A stretch of 36,853 nt of DNA from a virus: the UHGV virus genome UHGV-0090257. One strand, 5' to 3'. The stretch's first letter is position 1. Every line of letters begins with the position of its first letter. The notes below the pieces were generated by a model. The model was given only the letters and a program-made list of their open reading frames with translations. It had not been told where the DNA came from and searched no databases. The position numbers and the translations under genes were made by a program. Below are positions 16,601-29,138 of this stretch, one piece after another.

Positions 16601-16816
16601 AACCTCGTCTAGTTGTTCGCCATAGATTCAGTGGCAGGCGGTGACGAGTCCGCTTTTCGGGAGCTACCCTAGCCACTGCTTTATTCTATCCAATGTCTTT
16701 CCATCAGTCCGCCACCACAAAGAATCTTTTTTGCCATAAGGCAGGAGGTTCATCTTTCAGTGGCTGCCAGTGTTATTTCCCCACTTACTGGCTTGGGTTG
16801 TTTCGCTGTACTGCCG

Positions 16817-25592: not shown

Positions 25593-26438
25593 TCACTCCT
25601 GCGCCCATGAAGGCATTTCAGTTTGTCCGTAATCTTTGGCGGCAAAGTTTTCCTGCATAGCTCGATGCTGCGGCCTCGGTTGAGATTTCCCCTTTGGAGT
25701 CTTGGGCTCAAAAATCCCCTGCCAACCACTGGCGATGCTCTGGTTTATAATTTCTTCAGGTGTATATCCCTTCTCCAGACTTCTGCTTAGAACGTTGATA
25801 GCCTGAGTGACACTTTGCTTAGACTTGATCGACTTACCTATCTCCTTGCGATAGGTAACCCACGACAACCATGTTTCTGCAGATAACCAATCAGGCAACT
25901 CTGTTTCTAGCGGGTCGAACTTCTGAGAAACTTTTTTGGGGGATATAGGGGGTTTATTAATATTTTCTTTTGTCTTTAAAGAATGTCTTTTGTGTGTCTC
26001 TAACTTCGAGACATTGAGTGTCTCTAATTTGGAGACATTTTTTGTCTCTAACTTCGAGACAAAGTTGCTAACTTGGAGACACTTGCTGAATAGCCACGCA
26101 GATACCTCCCTGTTTACACCGATTTGATTTCCATCCATAAACAGGCAATTCATTGAAATCAGTTCTTTTTTAGCCTTGTTAACATTCTGCCTTGACAGTC
26201 CTGTTAACTGAGCAATTTGCTCATCGGCTATTCGATCTGTTTTCTTATTGAATCCATATGTTTTCCTGACGTAGGCCAGCATAACTTTCAACTGGCGAGC
26301 GGTTAAATCGGCACTTGCGATAGCTTCCAGCAGCTCGTTAGCGAATCTGGTGTAACCATCATCGATATCAGCCACTCTTCGCTCCTGTTCGGCAAAGTTA
26401 CCTCTGCCGAAGTTGAGTATTTTTGCTGTATTTGTCAT
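25593..26438 (-). CDS. O: Replication initiator, lambda O-like, containing the origin
   Basis: 281 aa; N-terminus MTNTAKILNFGRGNFAEQERRVADIDDGYTRF... closely resembles lambda O as remembered; the middle of the gene carries iterons. Confidence 0.85.
   Translation of the reverse strand: MTNTAKILNFGRGNFAEQERRVADIDDGYTRFANELLEAIASADLTARQLKVMLAYVRKTYGFNKKTDRIADEQIAQLTGLSRQNVNKAKKELISMNCLFMDGNQIGVNREVSAWLFSKCLQVSNFVSKLETKNVSKLETLNVSKLETHKRHSLKTKENINKPPISPKKVSQKFDPLETELPDWLSAETWLSWVTYRKEIGKSIKSKQSVTQAINVLSRSLEKGYTPEEIINQSIASGWQGIFEPKTPKGKSQPRPQHRAMQENFAAKDYGQTEMPSWAQE
25995..26081. repeat. Origin iterons (4 copies of an ~19-bp dyad-symmetric repeat) inside the O-like gene
   Basis: TGTCTCTAACTTCGAGACA at 25995 and 26043, TGTCTCTAATTTGGAGACA at 26019, and a degenerate copy at 26063; followed on the O-sense side by an AT-rich tract at 25925..25985. 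Confidence 0.75.
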
Positions 26439-26472
26439 AATGACTCCTGTGGATTGATCCAGTCTTTCTACA

Positions 26473-26751
26473 TCAGGCCTCGAAGAATTCGCCGTTCTTC
26501 GGGGCTTTTTCTTTTGTCAGCATTCTTGCTACTTTCTTAGCCAGTTCCGCCAACTCCTCGTCTTCAACACCCCATTCAAGAACAGCCAGAAGCATTCCCA
26601 TTTTTGGGATGAAGCTGTCTTTCCATCGCGAAATTTGCGATTCATTAATCCCTAACGCGTCGGCAACCTTTCGCTGACCACGTACAGCAATTCGATTCAG
26701 GATGTTGCTTGTAATTGCATTCGCTTTCTTGCGAGTACTTGTAAGTTCCAT
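26473..26751 (-). CDS. cII: CII-like lysogeny establishment activator
   Basis: From the internal Met: ...GINESQISRWKDSFIPKMGMLLAVLEWGV... aligns with the lambda CII core (VDKSQISRWKRDWIPKFSMLLAVLEWGV); SD AAGGAAAT upstream; the longer six-frame ORF overlaps nutR. Confidence 0.85.
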   Translation of the reverse strand: MELTSTRKKANAITSNILNRIAVRGQRKVADALGINESQISRWKDSFIPKMGMLLAVLEWGVEDEELAELAKKVARMLTKEKAPKNGEFFEA

Positions 26752-26783
26752 ATGTAAGTATTTCCTTAACAAATAAGAAGTTA

Positions 26784-26801
26784 TGCGCATCAACTTATGC
26801 G
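26784..26801 (-). terminator. Hairpin between nutR and cII (tR1 position)
   Basis: Perfect GCGCAT-aagttg-ATGCGC stem; the downstream sequence is only partly U-rich. Confidence 0.35.
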
Positions 26802-26807
26802 CGTTGT

Positions 26808-26853
26808 ATTCCCGCATTTCGGCGGGAATGAGGACCATGACTGTTAAAGAGCG
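26808..26853 (-). promoter_or_regulatory. nutR (boxA plus boxB)
   Basis: Minus-strand sense boxA CGCTCTTTAACAG and boxB hairpin TTCCCGC-CGAAAT-GCGGGAA, between cro and cII. Confidence 0.7.
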
Positions 26854-26859
26854 GTGTTA

Positions 26860-27054
26860 CTATTTGTTTTTCTTGTTGCTTGGGAAAGGACGAACTTCCT
26901 CTCCAATCACACTGCCATCAGGCTTTACCGTAACCATGATGTTACGGCCTGCCAGAATGGCCTTGCTGATAGCGCACTGGATTACACCAAAGTCACTGGC
27001 TGCTTTAGCCTGTCCATGGATTTTGGCGTAATCGGCAAGTGTCATTCGAATCAT
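26860..27054 (-). CDS. cro: Cro repressor
   Basis: About 64 aa from the ATG at 27054; ...[35 protein letters not shown]...[16 protein letters not shown] aligns with lambda Cro; SD GGAGA upstream. Confidence 0.85.
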
Positions 27055-27083
27055 ATGCACTCTCCGTTATTAACCATGAACAA

Positions 27084-27154
27084 AGAATACTACAGGTATT
27101 CAAAGCAATCAATACTCAGGGTATTTTTAGTTTAAGTACTTTAGCTATTAGAAT
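27084..27154. promoter_or_regulatory. Right operator region with divergent pR and pRM
   Basis: Operator-like dyads AATACTACAGGTATT (27086..27100), AATACTCAGGGTATT (27111..27125) and weaker AGTACTTTAGCTATT (27135..27149); pR -10 TATTCT and -35 TTGATT on the minus strand; candidate pRM -10 TAGAAT at 27149..27154 about 7 nt before the cI ATG. Confidence 0.6.
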
Positions 27155-27160
27155 TAAGCT

Positions 27161-27877
27161 ATGGAAAATAAAAAATCACTGACGACAGAACAGCTCGAAG
27201 ACGCTAAGCGGCTTAAGGCTTTGTATGAGTCAAAAAAGAAAGAATTGGGAATAACCCAATACTCAATCGCTGATGAACTGGGTATCACCCAAGGAGCGGT
27301 AGGGCATTATCTTAATGGCAGAAACGCGCTAAACGTTGAGGTTGCATCTGGTTTTGCACGACTGTTGCAAGTCTCAATTGCTGATTTTAGCCAGTCAATT
27401 GCTGCCAAGGTTGCAGAACAGGCAGAAAGCCTTAAGAGCGATGCCAACGTAAGGTATGCAGGGGAATACAGAGCAGGAAAGAGGTATCCGGTGTTAAGCA
27501 GTATCCAGGCTGGCTCGTGGTGTGAAGCATGCGAACCATACACCATTAAAGACATAGATGTTTGGCTTGAGTCTGACGCGCATATTCAAGGTAATGCGTT
27601 CTGGCTTAAAGTGGAAGGTGATTCAATGACGGCACCGGTTGGGTTAAGCATTCCAGAGGGAACATTCGTTCTTTTCGATACCGGAAGGGAGGCGATCAAC
27701 GGCAGCTTGGTCATAGCAAAACTTTCTGACTCTAACGAAGCAACATTCAAGAAGCTGATAATCGACGGCGGAAATAAATACCTCAAGGGACTTAATCCTG
27801 CATGGCCTCTCGTGCCAATCAATGGAAACTGCAAGATTATAGGCGTTGCAATTGAGACAAAACTAAGGCTGGTTTGA
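27161..27877 (+). CDS. cI: CI-type prophage repressor (HTH plus S24 LexA-like autopeptidase domain)
   Basis: 238 aa; N-terminal HTH (ITQYSIADELGITQGAVGHYLNG), A-G cleavage site in QAGSW, catalytic Ser in GDSM and Lys in FKKL. Confidence 0.9.
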   Translation: MENKKSLTTEQLEDAKRLKALYESKKKELGITQYSIADELGITQGAVGHYLNGRNALNVEVASGFARLLQVSIADFSQSIAAKVAEQAESLKSDANVRYAGEYRAGKRYPVLSSIQAGSWCEACEPYTIKDIDVWLESDAHIQGNAFWLKVEGDSMTAPVGLSIPEGTFVLFDTGREAINGSLVIAKLSDSNEATFKKLIIDGGNKYLKGLNPAWPLVPINGNCKIIGVAIETKLRLV

Positions 27878-27894
27878 TCACGCAAGGGGCGATT

Positions 27895-28263
27895 ATGGTT
27901 GGAACAGCTATAGCAAGCTTTTTTGGGATGTTGGCAATCTCGACAATTTACGGCTTAGCGCATGCTTTTATTGCGAAATCTCTATCAGAAAAAATAAGCC
28001 AGGCTTGGGCGCATAGATTAGCTCGTTTCATGATTCTAGTGATCATAGCAATACAAGGGATATCTGCATTTATCCTCTATGGTTCAAGCTTATACCTGTT
28101 GTATCAAGGCGCGACATTTACGCCTTACACCAGTGATTACGGAACGCTATACGATGGTAGTGAAGACATCTCTATGGCTTGGATCGTCTTTGGTTTATCT
28201 ATGGCCGTGTCTGTTGTAGCAGACATCATTAAGGTAATTCTCGTCTTAACCTTCGCTGACTAA
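27895..28263 (+). CDS. Small polytopic membrane protein co-oriented with cI (lysogenic accessory gene in the rex slot)
   Basis: About 122 aa from the ATG at 27895 (SD AAGGGG); at least three hydrophobic helices; starts 18 nt after the cI stop and ends before OL. Confidence 0.6.
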   Translation: MVGTAIASFFGMLAISTIYGLAHAFIAKSLSEKISQAWAHRLARFMILVIIAIQGISAFILYGSSLYLLYQGATFTPYTSDYGTLYDGSEDISMAWIVFGLSMAVSVVADIIKVILVLTFAD

Positions 28264-28350
28264 ACCATAATCCCGGCAGCAATAGCTATCGGGATCCACT
28301 TCACATATCCCGCATAAAAAACACTGAACAAGCAGACACCGAAAAAAATA

Positions 28351-28437
28351 AATATCCTTTGTATTCATTTGCTTATCATTATTTCACCAAAAATAAATAC
28401 CTTGGGTATTTACACAATAAAATACCTACAGTATTCT
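28351..28437. promoter_or_regulatory. Left operator region with pL
   Basis: Dyads AATATCCTTTGTATT (28351..28365), AATACCTTGGGTATT (28396..28410) and AATACCTACAGTATT (28421..28435), the same family as OR; pL -35 TTTACA (28409..28414) and -10 TATTCT (28432..28437) pointing toward N. Confidence 0.6.
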
Positions 28438-28482
28438 TTAGCCATCAGCAGGACGCTGGAAGCCAAACGGAACAGATTGGCA

Positions 28483-28524
28483 GGCTCTTTAACATTGATG
28501 GGATTGTCCCGCCGAAATGCGGGA
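28483..28524 (+). promoter_or_regulatory. nutL (boxA plus boxB)
   Basis: boxA GGCTCTTTAACA followed 12 nt later by hairpin TCCCGC-CGAAAT-GCGGGA, the same boxB core as nutR. Confidence 0.7.
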
Positions 28525-28838
28525 ACCAAAGAGTAGTTGGCTTTGGGGTGACGTGAAGTGCAGCTGCACGACGGCAACCGGAAGATAAGCACCCGGCGCG
28601 TCACCGCCAAAGTCAATTCCATAGGCGTTATGCAGCCGCCACCATATTCAAGAAAGCTGCACAAGAGGTAGGAGGATTTATGTGAATACTTACATTCAAT
28701 TGAGAGATTAATTAAATAGAACTGATCGAGCAGAGTCCATGAAGGCTCATAAATGCTCTTCCATCCCCGTCTAATTGGCGGGGAAGGAAACCACTTTGTA
28801 ATAAAAAAAATTCCAAAGTTGTTTCATCGGAGGTCAAC

Positions 28839-29138
28839 ATGACAGTAGTCATTACATATCTGGCTGACGATAACGCCAGAAATCGCCGCAGAGCACGCAG
28901 ACAGGCTCAACGTGAACAGGCAATGCAAGAGCAGCGACTGGCGCGAAAAATTGCGCTAAAGCTCTCTGGTTGCGTCAGAGCAGATAAAGCAGCATCACTC
29001 GGAAGCCTTCGCAGCAAGAAGGCAGAAGAAGTCGAGCGTAAACAGAACCGTATTTACTACCGCAAGCCCCGCAGTGAAATGGGTGTGACATGTGTTGGTC
29101 GCCAGAAAATGAAATTAGGCAGCAAACCACTTATTTGA
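28839..29138 (+). CDS. N: N-type transcription antiterminator
   Basis: 99 aa; N-terminal arginine-rich motif NARNRRRARRQAQREQA; first gene downstream of pL/nutL; SD GGAGGT. Confidence 0.8.
   Translation: MTVVITYLADDNARNRRRARRQAQREQAMQEQRLARKIALKLSGCVRADKAASLGSLRSKKAEEVERKQNRIYYRKPRSEMGVTCVGRQKMKLGSKPLI

Follow-up and report, generated by a model that had tools for sequence, protein, structure and literature searches.

Two copies of one hairpin, each preceded by the same short element, lie on either side of the immunity cassette in the viral genome UHGV-0090257, the whole 36,853-nt stretch of which was analysed here (the window). Are these elements the N-utilisation sites of the prophage, and do they form, together with the N protein encoded nearby, a pair with its own specificity? 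An earlier note on this DNA had named them nutL and nutR and had described an identical boxA and an identical boxB, TCCCGC-CGAAAT-GCGGGA, at both. Two exact copies of each were indeed found. The boxB 18-mer TCCCGCCGAAATGCGGGA occurs exactly twice in the window, with 0.01 copies expected in shuffled sequences and at least two matches in 0 of 100 shuffles. The boxA GCTCTTTAACA also has exactly two copies; as 14 of 100 shuffles reach this 11-mer with one mismatch allowed, it is not rare alone. The spacing between boxA and boxB is 12 nt in nutL and 14 nt in nutR. Judged from sequence and position, the two sites are N-utilisation sites of an HK620/CUS-3-like (P22-like, HK620/Sf6/CUS-3-type) lambdoid E. 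coli prophage, with the following elements:

28484-28524, + strand: nutL, between pL and N
28484-28494, + strand: nutL boxA GCTCTTTAACA, an exact match within the HK620 'nutL' feature
28507-28524, + strand: nutL boxB UCCCGC-CGAAAU-GCGGGA, with a 6-bp stem that covaries in relatives and a 6-nt loop
26810-26852, - strand: nutR, between cro and cII
26842-26852, - strand: nutR boxA GCTCTTTAACA, an exact match within the HK620 'nutR' feature
26808-26829 (core 26810-26827), - strand: nutR boxB, its core identical to the nutL boxB and its stem extended to 8 bp by an A-U and a U-A pair

The identification as nutL and nutR is borne out both by placement downstream of pL and pR and by identity to annotated features. 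Base for base, the sites are the nutL and nutR features of phage HK620 (AF335538), which are labelled 'putative' in GenBank; the 42-nt nutL of HK620 maps to 28483-28524 and its 46-nt nutR to 26808-26853, with 0 mismatches each. Open reading frames, Pfam matches and the mapping of HK620 features place nutL in the pL-to-N interval and nutR in the cro-to-cII interval, and in both early transcripts a boxA of the CGCUCUU(U)A type lies 5' of the hairpin. Compared with the lambda map, the window runs in the opposite orientation. The neighbouring features are:

28409-28444, + strand: early leftward promoter pL, mapped from HK620 with 0-1 mismatch
28373-28436: operators OL1-OL3, HK620 OL features with 0-1 mismatch
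27161-27877, + strand: cI repressor, at the centre of the immunity cassette between the nut sites (Pfam HTH_3 and Peptidase_S24; same as HK620 cI)
27085-27150: operators OR1-OR3, HK620 features with 0-1 mismatch
27077-27112, - strand: early rightward promoter pR, HK620 feature with 0-1 mismatch
26860-27060, - strand: cro (Pfam Cro, E = 4e-26)
26473-26751, - strand: cII, the first gene 3' of nutR (Pfam Phage_CII, E = 1e-42)

A promoter scan likewise reported TTTACA-17-TATTCT at 28409-28437.

The candidate partner of the hairpins is encoded downstream of nutL:

28839-29138, + strand: gene of the N antitermination protein, 99 aa (open reading frame; PHROG 271; mosaic by tblastn)
28872-28922, + strand: codons of the arginine-rich motif, N residues 12-28 NARNRRRARRQAQREQA (in-register alignment with lambda, P22 and phi21)

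The protein matches PHROG 271, 'anti-termination protein N-like', with E = 2e-36, and there is a C-terminal match to the lambda N of the antitermination complex PDB 6GOV (E = 7e-5); the Pfam N_peptide score of 19.3 bits is below the gathering threshold of 27.9. By homology, it is thus an N protein, small and basic, with its arginine-rich motif near the N-terminus and, at the C-terminus, a probable region for binding RNA polymerase. Its gene is mosaic, with an HK620-type N-terminal part and a phi21-type C-terminal part (aa 37-99). The motif had been called distinct, and residues 12-28 do differ from the motifs of lambda, P22 and phi21, A13, R16, R20 and R21 being invariant in the alignment of the four; Ala28 is aligned with Trp18 of lambda N. 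The motif core D[NT][AS][RK]NRR[RK] is kept across 169 loci.

Comparison of the motifs with the hairpins in 11 reference phages gave four motif classes, each with one boxB class:

lambda motif class: boxB GCCCUGAAGAAGGGC; lambda, HK544, Sf6
phi21 motif class: boxB with a CUAACC hexaloop; phi21, mEp235, HK629
P22 motif class: boxB with a GACAA loop; SH2026Stx1
HK620 motif class: CGAAAU hairpin; the window, HK620, mEpX2, CUS-3

In these phages the C-termini of N differ inside each motif class. Further, 8 unrelated immunity cassettes lie between boxB cores that are identical. Hence each motif class travels with its own boxB class (in the 11 reference phages, the 169 loci and the 8 immunity cassettes), with the remainder of N and the immunity region recombining freely. 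The sample contained no locus in which an HK620-type boxB stood beside a lambda-type motif, nor any in which a lambda-type boxB stood beside an HK620-type motif. One locus with the same N and without nut sites is a deletion remnant abutting tail genes. The earlier note's suggestion of a separate specificity for this N-boxB pair gains support from the co-inheritance, and the HK620-type motif and boxB appear to form a specificity class beside those of lambda, P22 and phi21.

The sites could also be genuine and the specificity shared, so that HK620-type and lambda-type N proteins read each other's boxB, both hairpins offering a GNRA-like GAAA fold to an A-x-x-RRR-x-RR helix; the sixth base of the loop would then be neutral variation. 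It is plausible that such cross-recognition with partners of the lambda type occurs, because the A-x-x-R-R-R-x-R-R core, with its identical arginine spacing when the motif is aligned with lambda N, is common to both and because the loop contains GAAA, all variants of which stay within GNRA; moreover, boxB hairpins remade with a GNRA tetraloop are tolerated by the lambda N peptide. However, free exchange of the N C-terminus and of the immunity cassette has left no mixed motif/boxB locus in the sample, the HK620-type motif has Ala28 where lambda has Trp18, and the flanking C and U of the loop are invariant together with the G-C-rich upper stem. We therefore regard shared specificity as unlikely. 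The HK620-type N would be orthogonal to other N proteins to some degree.

The structure of the hairpin bears on how such a class could be recognised. Folded in isolation, the boxB has 6 bp in its stem and 6 nt in its loop (dG -10.5 kcal/mol, z = -3.8; 0 of 200 shuffles as stable), and the stem and loop sizes agree with those given in the earlier note, which had set them against the 5-nt loop of lambda (GAAAA in nutR, GAAGA in nutL). In nutR the AU and UA pairs lengthen the stem to 8 bp. The loop is the same in nutL and nutR, and the structure is backed by compensatory change in relatives: both partners change in 4 of 8 stem pairs, the proposed register has 87.5% of cells paired as against 36-59% in slid registers, and the observed score was reached in 0 of 500 shuffles. 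Among the 169 motif loci, the same-strand sites have the CGAAAU loop except one CGAGAU and one AGAGAU, and the opposite-strand sites have it except two CGCAAU, so that the evidence from loop variants comes from only four sites in three loci. As all variants fit, the loop can be written as [C/A]-GNRA-U; in the AGAGAU variant, the flanking bases turn into a Watson-Crick A-U pair that closes a GAGA tetraloop. The six-base CGAAAU is not a pentaloop of the lambda or P22 type (GAAAA/GAAGA or GACAA, that is, GNRA with one base extruded), and a hexaloop is not unusual in the boxB family since the phi21 boxB has the CUAACC hexaloop. The loop has the length of a phi21-type hexaloop, and its variants fit [C/A]-GNRA-U; by analogy with phi21, its fold may be a four-base GNRA-like turn between the bases of a non-canonical pair. 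We infer that it may be a GAAA (GNRA) tetraloop on a non-canonical C·U platform.

At the top of the stem a single G stands opposite two adjacent C residues, and the sequence thus permits a slipped register, in which the first loop C pairs with the post-loop G, the preceding C is bulged, and the resulting pentaloop GAAAU agrees in length with those of lambda and P22. This register is improbable because of the AGAGAU variant, the first A of which can pair with U but not with G. Both the minimum free energy and the centroid structures computed by ViennaRNA also give the 6-nt loop, and in phi21 a non-canonical pair is already known to flank a hexaloop (PMC12550061). Returning to the hexaloop, we consider it an even question whether the HK620-type pair represents a fourth way, distinct in structure, for an N peptide to recognise boxB: a canonical GNRA tetraloop on a C·U (occasionally A-U) platform would be bound by the tryptophan-less motif DNARNRRRARRQAQ, orthogonally to lambda, P22 and phi21.

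That the hairpins are not N targets at all, but terminators, RNase III sites or operators duplicated around the immunity region, is suggested by the stable G+C-rich hairpins starting both early operons but can practically be dismissed, given the absence of a U-tract and of any call in the terminator scan, the boxA preceding each hairpin at nut-like spacing, the covariation of the hairpins with the N motif rather than with the repressor/operator cassette, and a stem of 6-8 bp, too short for RNase III.

A second hairpin is found between nutR and cII:

26785-26802, - strand: hairpin GCGCAU-AAGUUG-AUGCGC, 7 nt after the nutR boxB, with about 34 nt left to the cII AUG

This perfect 6-bp hairpin, which had been placed in the tR1 position, is present there (fold dG -9.0), adjoins the 7-nt 'tR1' feature of HK620 (26802-26808) and is conserved as a structure, since relatives keep a hairpin at the nutR-cII position, either through compensatory changes or with wholly different sequences. 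Its reading as tR1 in the form of an intrinsic terminator was rejected, the hairpin having no U-tract (its tail is AUAACUUCUUAUUUGUU) and no call in the terminator scan. Lambda tR1 is Rho-dependent (PMC3526286), so a tR1 role is still compatible with the missing U-tract.

We are confident in the overall explanation, namely HK620-type nutL and nutR sites on which N acts through boxB, as a specificity class of its own. The pL and pR transcripts would each bear a GCUCUUUAACA-consensus boxA, which in the lambda paradigm is the site for NusB/NusE, followed 12-14 nt later by the boxB hairpin. The prophage's own N is predicted to bind the boxB loop through its arginine-rich motif (approximately residues 12-28); the rest of N, with a C-terminus homologous to that end of lambda N which binds RNA polymerase, would then turn RNA polymerase termination-resistant together with Nus factors, the dependence on which is presumed. 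The resistant polymerase would read into cII-O-P and the leftward early genes. In the loop, GNRA (GAAA) on a C·U pair may parallel the phi21 hexaloop, where a C·C pair encloses UAAC.

The class is a common one: among 5426 complete E. coli genomes, 1711 have some level of match to the nutL-N segment, and in 145 of these the match covers 80% or more of the segment. A scan of species-representative genomes by motif alignment was swamped by degenerate-pattern hits, and only two loci were confirmed, in Escherichia sp. and Phytobacter ursingii. The Rfam search of the whole window at gathering thresholds returned nothing in the nut region and only int-alpA elsewhere, and a permissive Rfam search of 26400-28900 gave one chance scaRNA match only. 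In the searchable literature, our search for the HK620-type boxB and motif strings, hexaloop boxB and mEp phages found no paper with the boxB or motif sequence and no experimental study of the pair, be it of binding or of antitermination.

N-boxB pairs are a classic model of hairpin recognition by arginine-rich peptides and are widely used as tethering tools. The pair in the window would be an ordinary fourth flavour of the textbook N/nut system; if characterised, it would be the fourth natural cognate N-boxB pair and would show how boxBs with tetraloops, pentaloops and hexaloops can evolve into one another by a simple route. Should the recognition mode prove distinct, a natural orthogonal peptide-RNA tether would be added, as would a new data point on the small-step evolution of motif specificity. 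For the window, the practical value is one of annotation, as the sites would mark where delayed-early transcription turns termination-resistant.

The nut sites were already known, having been annotated in HK620 in 2001, and hexaloop boxBs were already known from phi21, two points that the earlier note had missed. The HK620 genome (GenBank AF335538) was reportedly described by Clark et al. 2001, J Mol Biol 311:657. HK620 is like the window in pL, pR and the operators (0-1 mismatch) and in N residues 1-64, which are 97% identical and include the whole arginine-rich motif. It differs in the C-terminal third of N, which is of the H-19B/P22 type in HK620 and of the phi21 type in the window, in the replication genes, and in the interval from nutL to N, where the window has about 200 extra bases that are common to CUS-3.

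Phage phi21 shares with the window the boxA, the first spacer bases and a nearly identical N from residue 37 to the end, as well as a six-base loop that may be read in both as a four-base GNRA-like turn with a non-canonical pyrimidine-pyrimidine flank. The NMR structure of the phi21 N-boxB complex, PDB 1NYB, is said to be that of Cilley & Williamson 2003. According to PMC12550061, which cites this structure, the hexaloop of the phi21 boxB folds in a GNRA-like manner and is flanked by C·C. However, the phi21 loop is CUAACC (UMAC), whereas that of the window is CGAAAU, a true GNRA; the stem sequences are different, and the motif is ARNRRRARRQAQ in the window and AKSRYKARRAEL in phi21. Since loop sequence and motif differ, the pair in the window does not belong to the phi21 specificity class.

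Lambda has the same order of boxA, spacer and boxB, with nutL before N and nutR between cro and cII, the same arginine spacing in the motif and a homologous N C-terminus. It differs in the 5-nt loop (GAAAA/GAAGA), which takes a GNRA-like fold with one base extruded, in the 5-bp GCCCU/AGGGC stem, in a boxA short of one U, and in having Trp18 in place of Ala28. The P22 N protein, gp24, has an N-terminus of the same MTV(I/V)xTY type, and its boxA agrees in consensus type with that of the window, as does the start of the P22 spacer in part; phages of the phi21 and P22 types share the boxA of the window. Unlike the window, P22 has the motif AKTRRHERRRKLAIERD and a GACAA pentaloop (PDB 1A4T), in which the C is extruded.

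By sequence, the window is a P22-like prophage with virion genes like those of HK620, Sf6, and CUS-3, and it runs in the opposite orientation to the conventional lambda map. Its immunity region is ~98% identical to those of HK620, HK630, mEpX2, and related phages, and the HK620 record AF335538 (Clark et al. 2001) already contains the features 'nutL; putative N-utilization leftward' and 'nutR; putative N-utilization rightward', together with pL, pR, OL1-3, OR1-3, tR1, and pRE.

Genes and mapped HK620 features in the immunity region of the window
26473-26751, minus strand: cII
26808-26853, minus strand: nutR, HK620 feature mapped with 0 mismatches
26860-27060, minus strand: cro
27077-27112, minus strand: pR, HK620 feature mapped with 0 mismatches
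27161-27877, plus strand: cI
27874-28263, plus strand: ORF for a hydrophobic membrane protein of 122-129 aa, between cI and pL
28409-28444, plus strand: pL, HK620 feature mapped with 0 mismatches
28483-28524, plus strand: nutL, HK620 feature mapped with 0 mismatches
28839-29138, plus strand: N

The HK620 OL and OR operators map with 0-1 mismatch, and pL was recovered independently by a consensus promoter scan. The mapping of pL and pR and the promoter scan thus place the nut sites in transcripts from the early promoters. The nut sites themselves are already annotated in the public record, being identical in sequence to features of a phage that was published in 2001. The hydrophobic ORF at 27874-28263 (+), which has no Pfam match, corresponds to HK620 hkaS and occupies the slot of rex in lambda, typical for accessory genes expressed in the lysogen.

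The boxB 18-mer TCCCGCCGAAATGCGGGA has exactly two copies in the window, at 28507-28524 (+) and 26810-26827 (-), with 0.01 expected from shuffles. The boxA 11-mer GCTCTTTAACA also occurs exactly twice, upstream of the same-strand boxB by 12 nt in nutL and 14 nt in nutR. In isolation, boxB forms a stem of 6 bp closed by a loop of 6 nt (dG -10.5 kcal/mol, z = -3.8), and two extra pairs extend the nutR stem to 8 bp. The earlier note, which had read both sites as a boxA followed by an identical boxB of this shape, is confirmed on these and its other points of fact.

The N protein is assigned to PHROG 271 ('anti-termination protein N-like', E = 2e-36), and its last 39 residues match the lambda N C-terminus in the antitermination complex 6GOV (E = 7e-5). 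By tblastn, it is a mosaic: residues 1-64 are of the HK620 type, shared with HK630, HK140, mEp213, and ECP1, and residues 37-99 are of the phi21 type, as in DE3 and phage 21, whereas the C-terminus is of the H-19B/P22 type in HK620 itself and of yet another type in mEpX2. The arginine-rich motif noticed previously is NARNRRRARRQAQREQA (residues 12-28); it aligns in register with the lambda, P22, and phi21 motifs, with A13, R16, R20, and R21 invariant and lambda Trp18 aligned with Ala28.

The leader between nutL and N is highly variable among phages with the same N (149 to 660 nt from boxA to the N start). That of the window (28525-28838) has about 200 bases more than that of HK620; the insert, at about 28625-28825, is common to CUS-3 (99%) and HK140 (75%) and contains a strong Shine-Dalgarno sequence AGGAGG (28670-28675) followed by ATG TGA (28680-28685), as well as a hairpin at about 28762-28785. 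The predicted leader RNA, 28445-28865 (+), is unusually structured (z = -4.1, 0/100 shuffles as stable). Its predicted helix of about 17 bp, GGCUUUGGGGUGACGUG with CGCGUCACCGCCAAAGUC (about 28539-28620, just past nutL), could correspond to the RNase III site that the lambda N leader carries.

Among the reference phages, lambda-type motifs (lambda, HK544, Sf6) always occur with GCCCUGAAGAAGGGC; phi21-type motifs (phi21, mEp235, HK629) occur with a CUAACC hexaloop, the P22-type motif (SH2026Stx1) with GACAA pentaloops, and the DNARNRRRARR motif (window, HK620, mEpX2, CUS-3) with the CGAAAU hairpin. The N C-termini vary inside each motif class, so it is the motif and boxB that keep company with each other. 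In a larger sample, combining 80 IMG/VR loci selected by N similarity, loci from two N-independent DNA patterns, and reference phage regions, the motif D[NT][AS][RK]NRR[RK] is encoded in 169 loci, where the loop of the boxA-linked hairpins is CGAAAU on the same strand (nutL) and on the opposite strand (nutR), except for four cases. Conversely, all nutL-type CGAAAU sites with a downstream ORF precede an N of this class. Further, identical boxB core pairs surround eight unrelated immunity cassettes of 1.1 to 2.9 kb, so the match between nutR and N outlasts replacement of all intervening DNA. These observations provide strong comparative support for the HK620-type motif and boxB forming a cognate pair, and they support the proposal that this pair probably has its own specificity.

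Other combinations were found in IMG/VR. In loci L212, L222-L224, and L226, a boxA-linked CCGC-UGGAAGU-GCGG accompanies an N-like protein bearing NARERRRIKRENERK, and in L216, L219, L220, and L229, a boxA-linked UACCGC-CGCUU-GCGGUA accompanies NSKSRRMRERGEH; both look like further N-boxB specificity classes. In L033 (IMGVR_UViG_2731957842_000007), a 98% identical N gene directly adjoins tail genes and has neither boxA nor boxB within 3.5 kb; this locus is apparently what a deletion has left of a prophage.

The 16 distinct hairpins of the class have 87.5% paired cells, versus 36-59% when the register is shifted by 1-3 columns. Both sides change in 4/8 stem pairs (the second pair, for instance, occurs both as G-C and as A-U), and the covariation score was reached by 0/500 shuffles.

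Loop variants of the CGAAAU hairpin
CGAGAU: nutL of L211
AGAGAU: nutL of L214
CGCAAU: nutR of L101 and nutR of L214

All four variant sites are compatible with [C/A]-G-N-R-A-U; the chance that three random substitutions would all be GNRA-compatible is estimated at roughly 6%. By analogy with other boxB folds, this boxB would present a genuine GAAA tetraloop supported by a C·U platform, a reading for which these four sites are suggestive. In the AGAGAU variant, the outer bases form an A-U pair of Watson-Crick type that closes a GAGA tetraloop; this variant makes less likely the alternative slipped register, in which a C would bulge out and the loop would be a GAAAU pentaloop. The parallels for the tetraloop reading are the phi21 boxB hexaloop CUAACC (PDB 1NYB), described as a UAAC turn that resembles GNRA and has a C·C pair at its flanks, and the lambda and P22 pentaloops, in which one base is extruded from a GNRA fold (PMC12550061).

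The perfect 6-bp hairpin that the earlier note correctly placed between nutR and cII, in the tR1 position, is at 26785-26802 (-). This hairpin, GCGCAU-AAGUUG-AUGCGC, lies 7 nt past the nutR boxB and about 34 nt upstream of the cII AUG, adjoining the HK620 'tR1', a 7-nt feature mapped to 26802-26808. Close relatives have compensatory variants, such as GCGCAUC-AGUU-GGUGCGC, and divergent relatives with other nutR stems have unrelated hairpins at the same position (GUUAGCC-AUAA-GGCUAAU, GUGAC...GUCAC), so a structure there seems to be under selection. The hairpin has no adjacent U-tract and drew no call in the terminator scan; candidate roles are pausing or Rho termination, RNA processing, and control of cII translation. 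In lambda, too, the nutR boxB is followed by small hairpins; the lambda tR1 overlaps nutR and depends on Rho (PMC3526286).

The nutR-cII leader, 26740-26856 (-), is predicted to fold (z = -2.9) so that the ribosome-binding region of cII, UUGUUAAGGA, is paired to boxA, UCUUUAACAG, with boxB and the second hairpin enclosed; given the UUAA palindrome, this pairing may be a chance product. Antisense to the cII 3' end, a strong hairpin that resembles a terminator and has a T-tract, 26475-26507 (+), lies downstream of a promoter-like TTGAGT-17-CATAAT with an extended TG, 26413-26441 (+). The arrangement is that of the lambda oop RNA; 26413-26507 (+) has no Rfam match. The only Rfam family in the window is the int-alpA sRNA, 16617-16679 (-), at 45.1 bits, above the gathering score.

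The HK620-type nut feature is an ordinary one whose initial interpretation is supported, and the class is common, since the nutL-N segment has matches in 1711/5426 complete E. coli genomes. No paper giving the boxB or motif sequence, or an assay of the pair, was found in the searchable part of the literature. The residual interest is that an abundant N-boxB class, whose hexaloop probably holds a canonical GNRA tetraloop, is apparently uncharacterised biochemically. The boxA GCUCUUUAACA is shared with phages of the phi21 and P22 types, whereas the lambda boxA, GCUCUUA(A/C), is shorter and different. GCUCUUUAACA matches the E. coli rrn boxA consensus. A hexaloop boxB is already known from phi21. 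It is standard for lambdoid phages to differ in N-boxB specificity, located in the N-terminus of N, as discussed for epsilon34 (PMC2629481) and phage L (PMC8022706).
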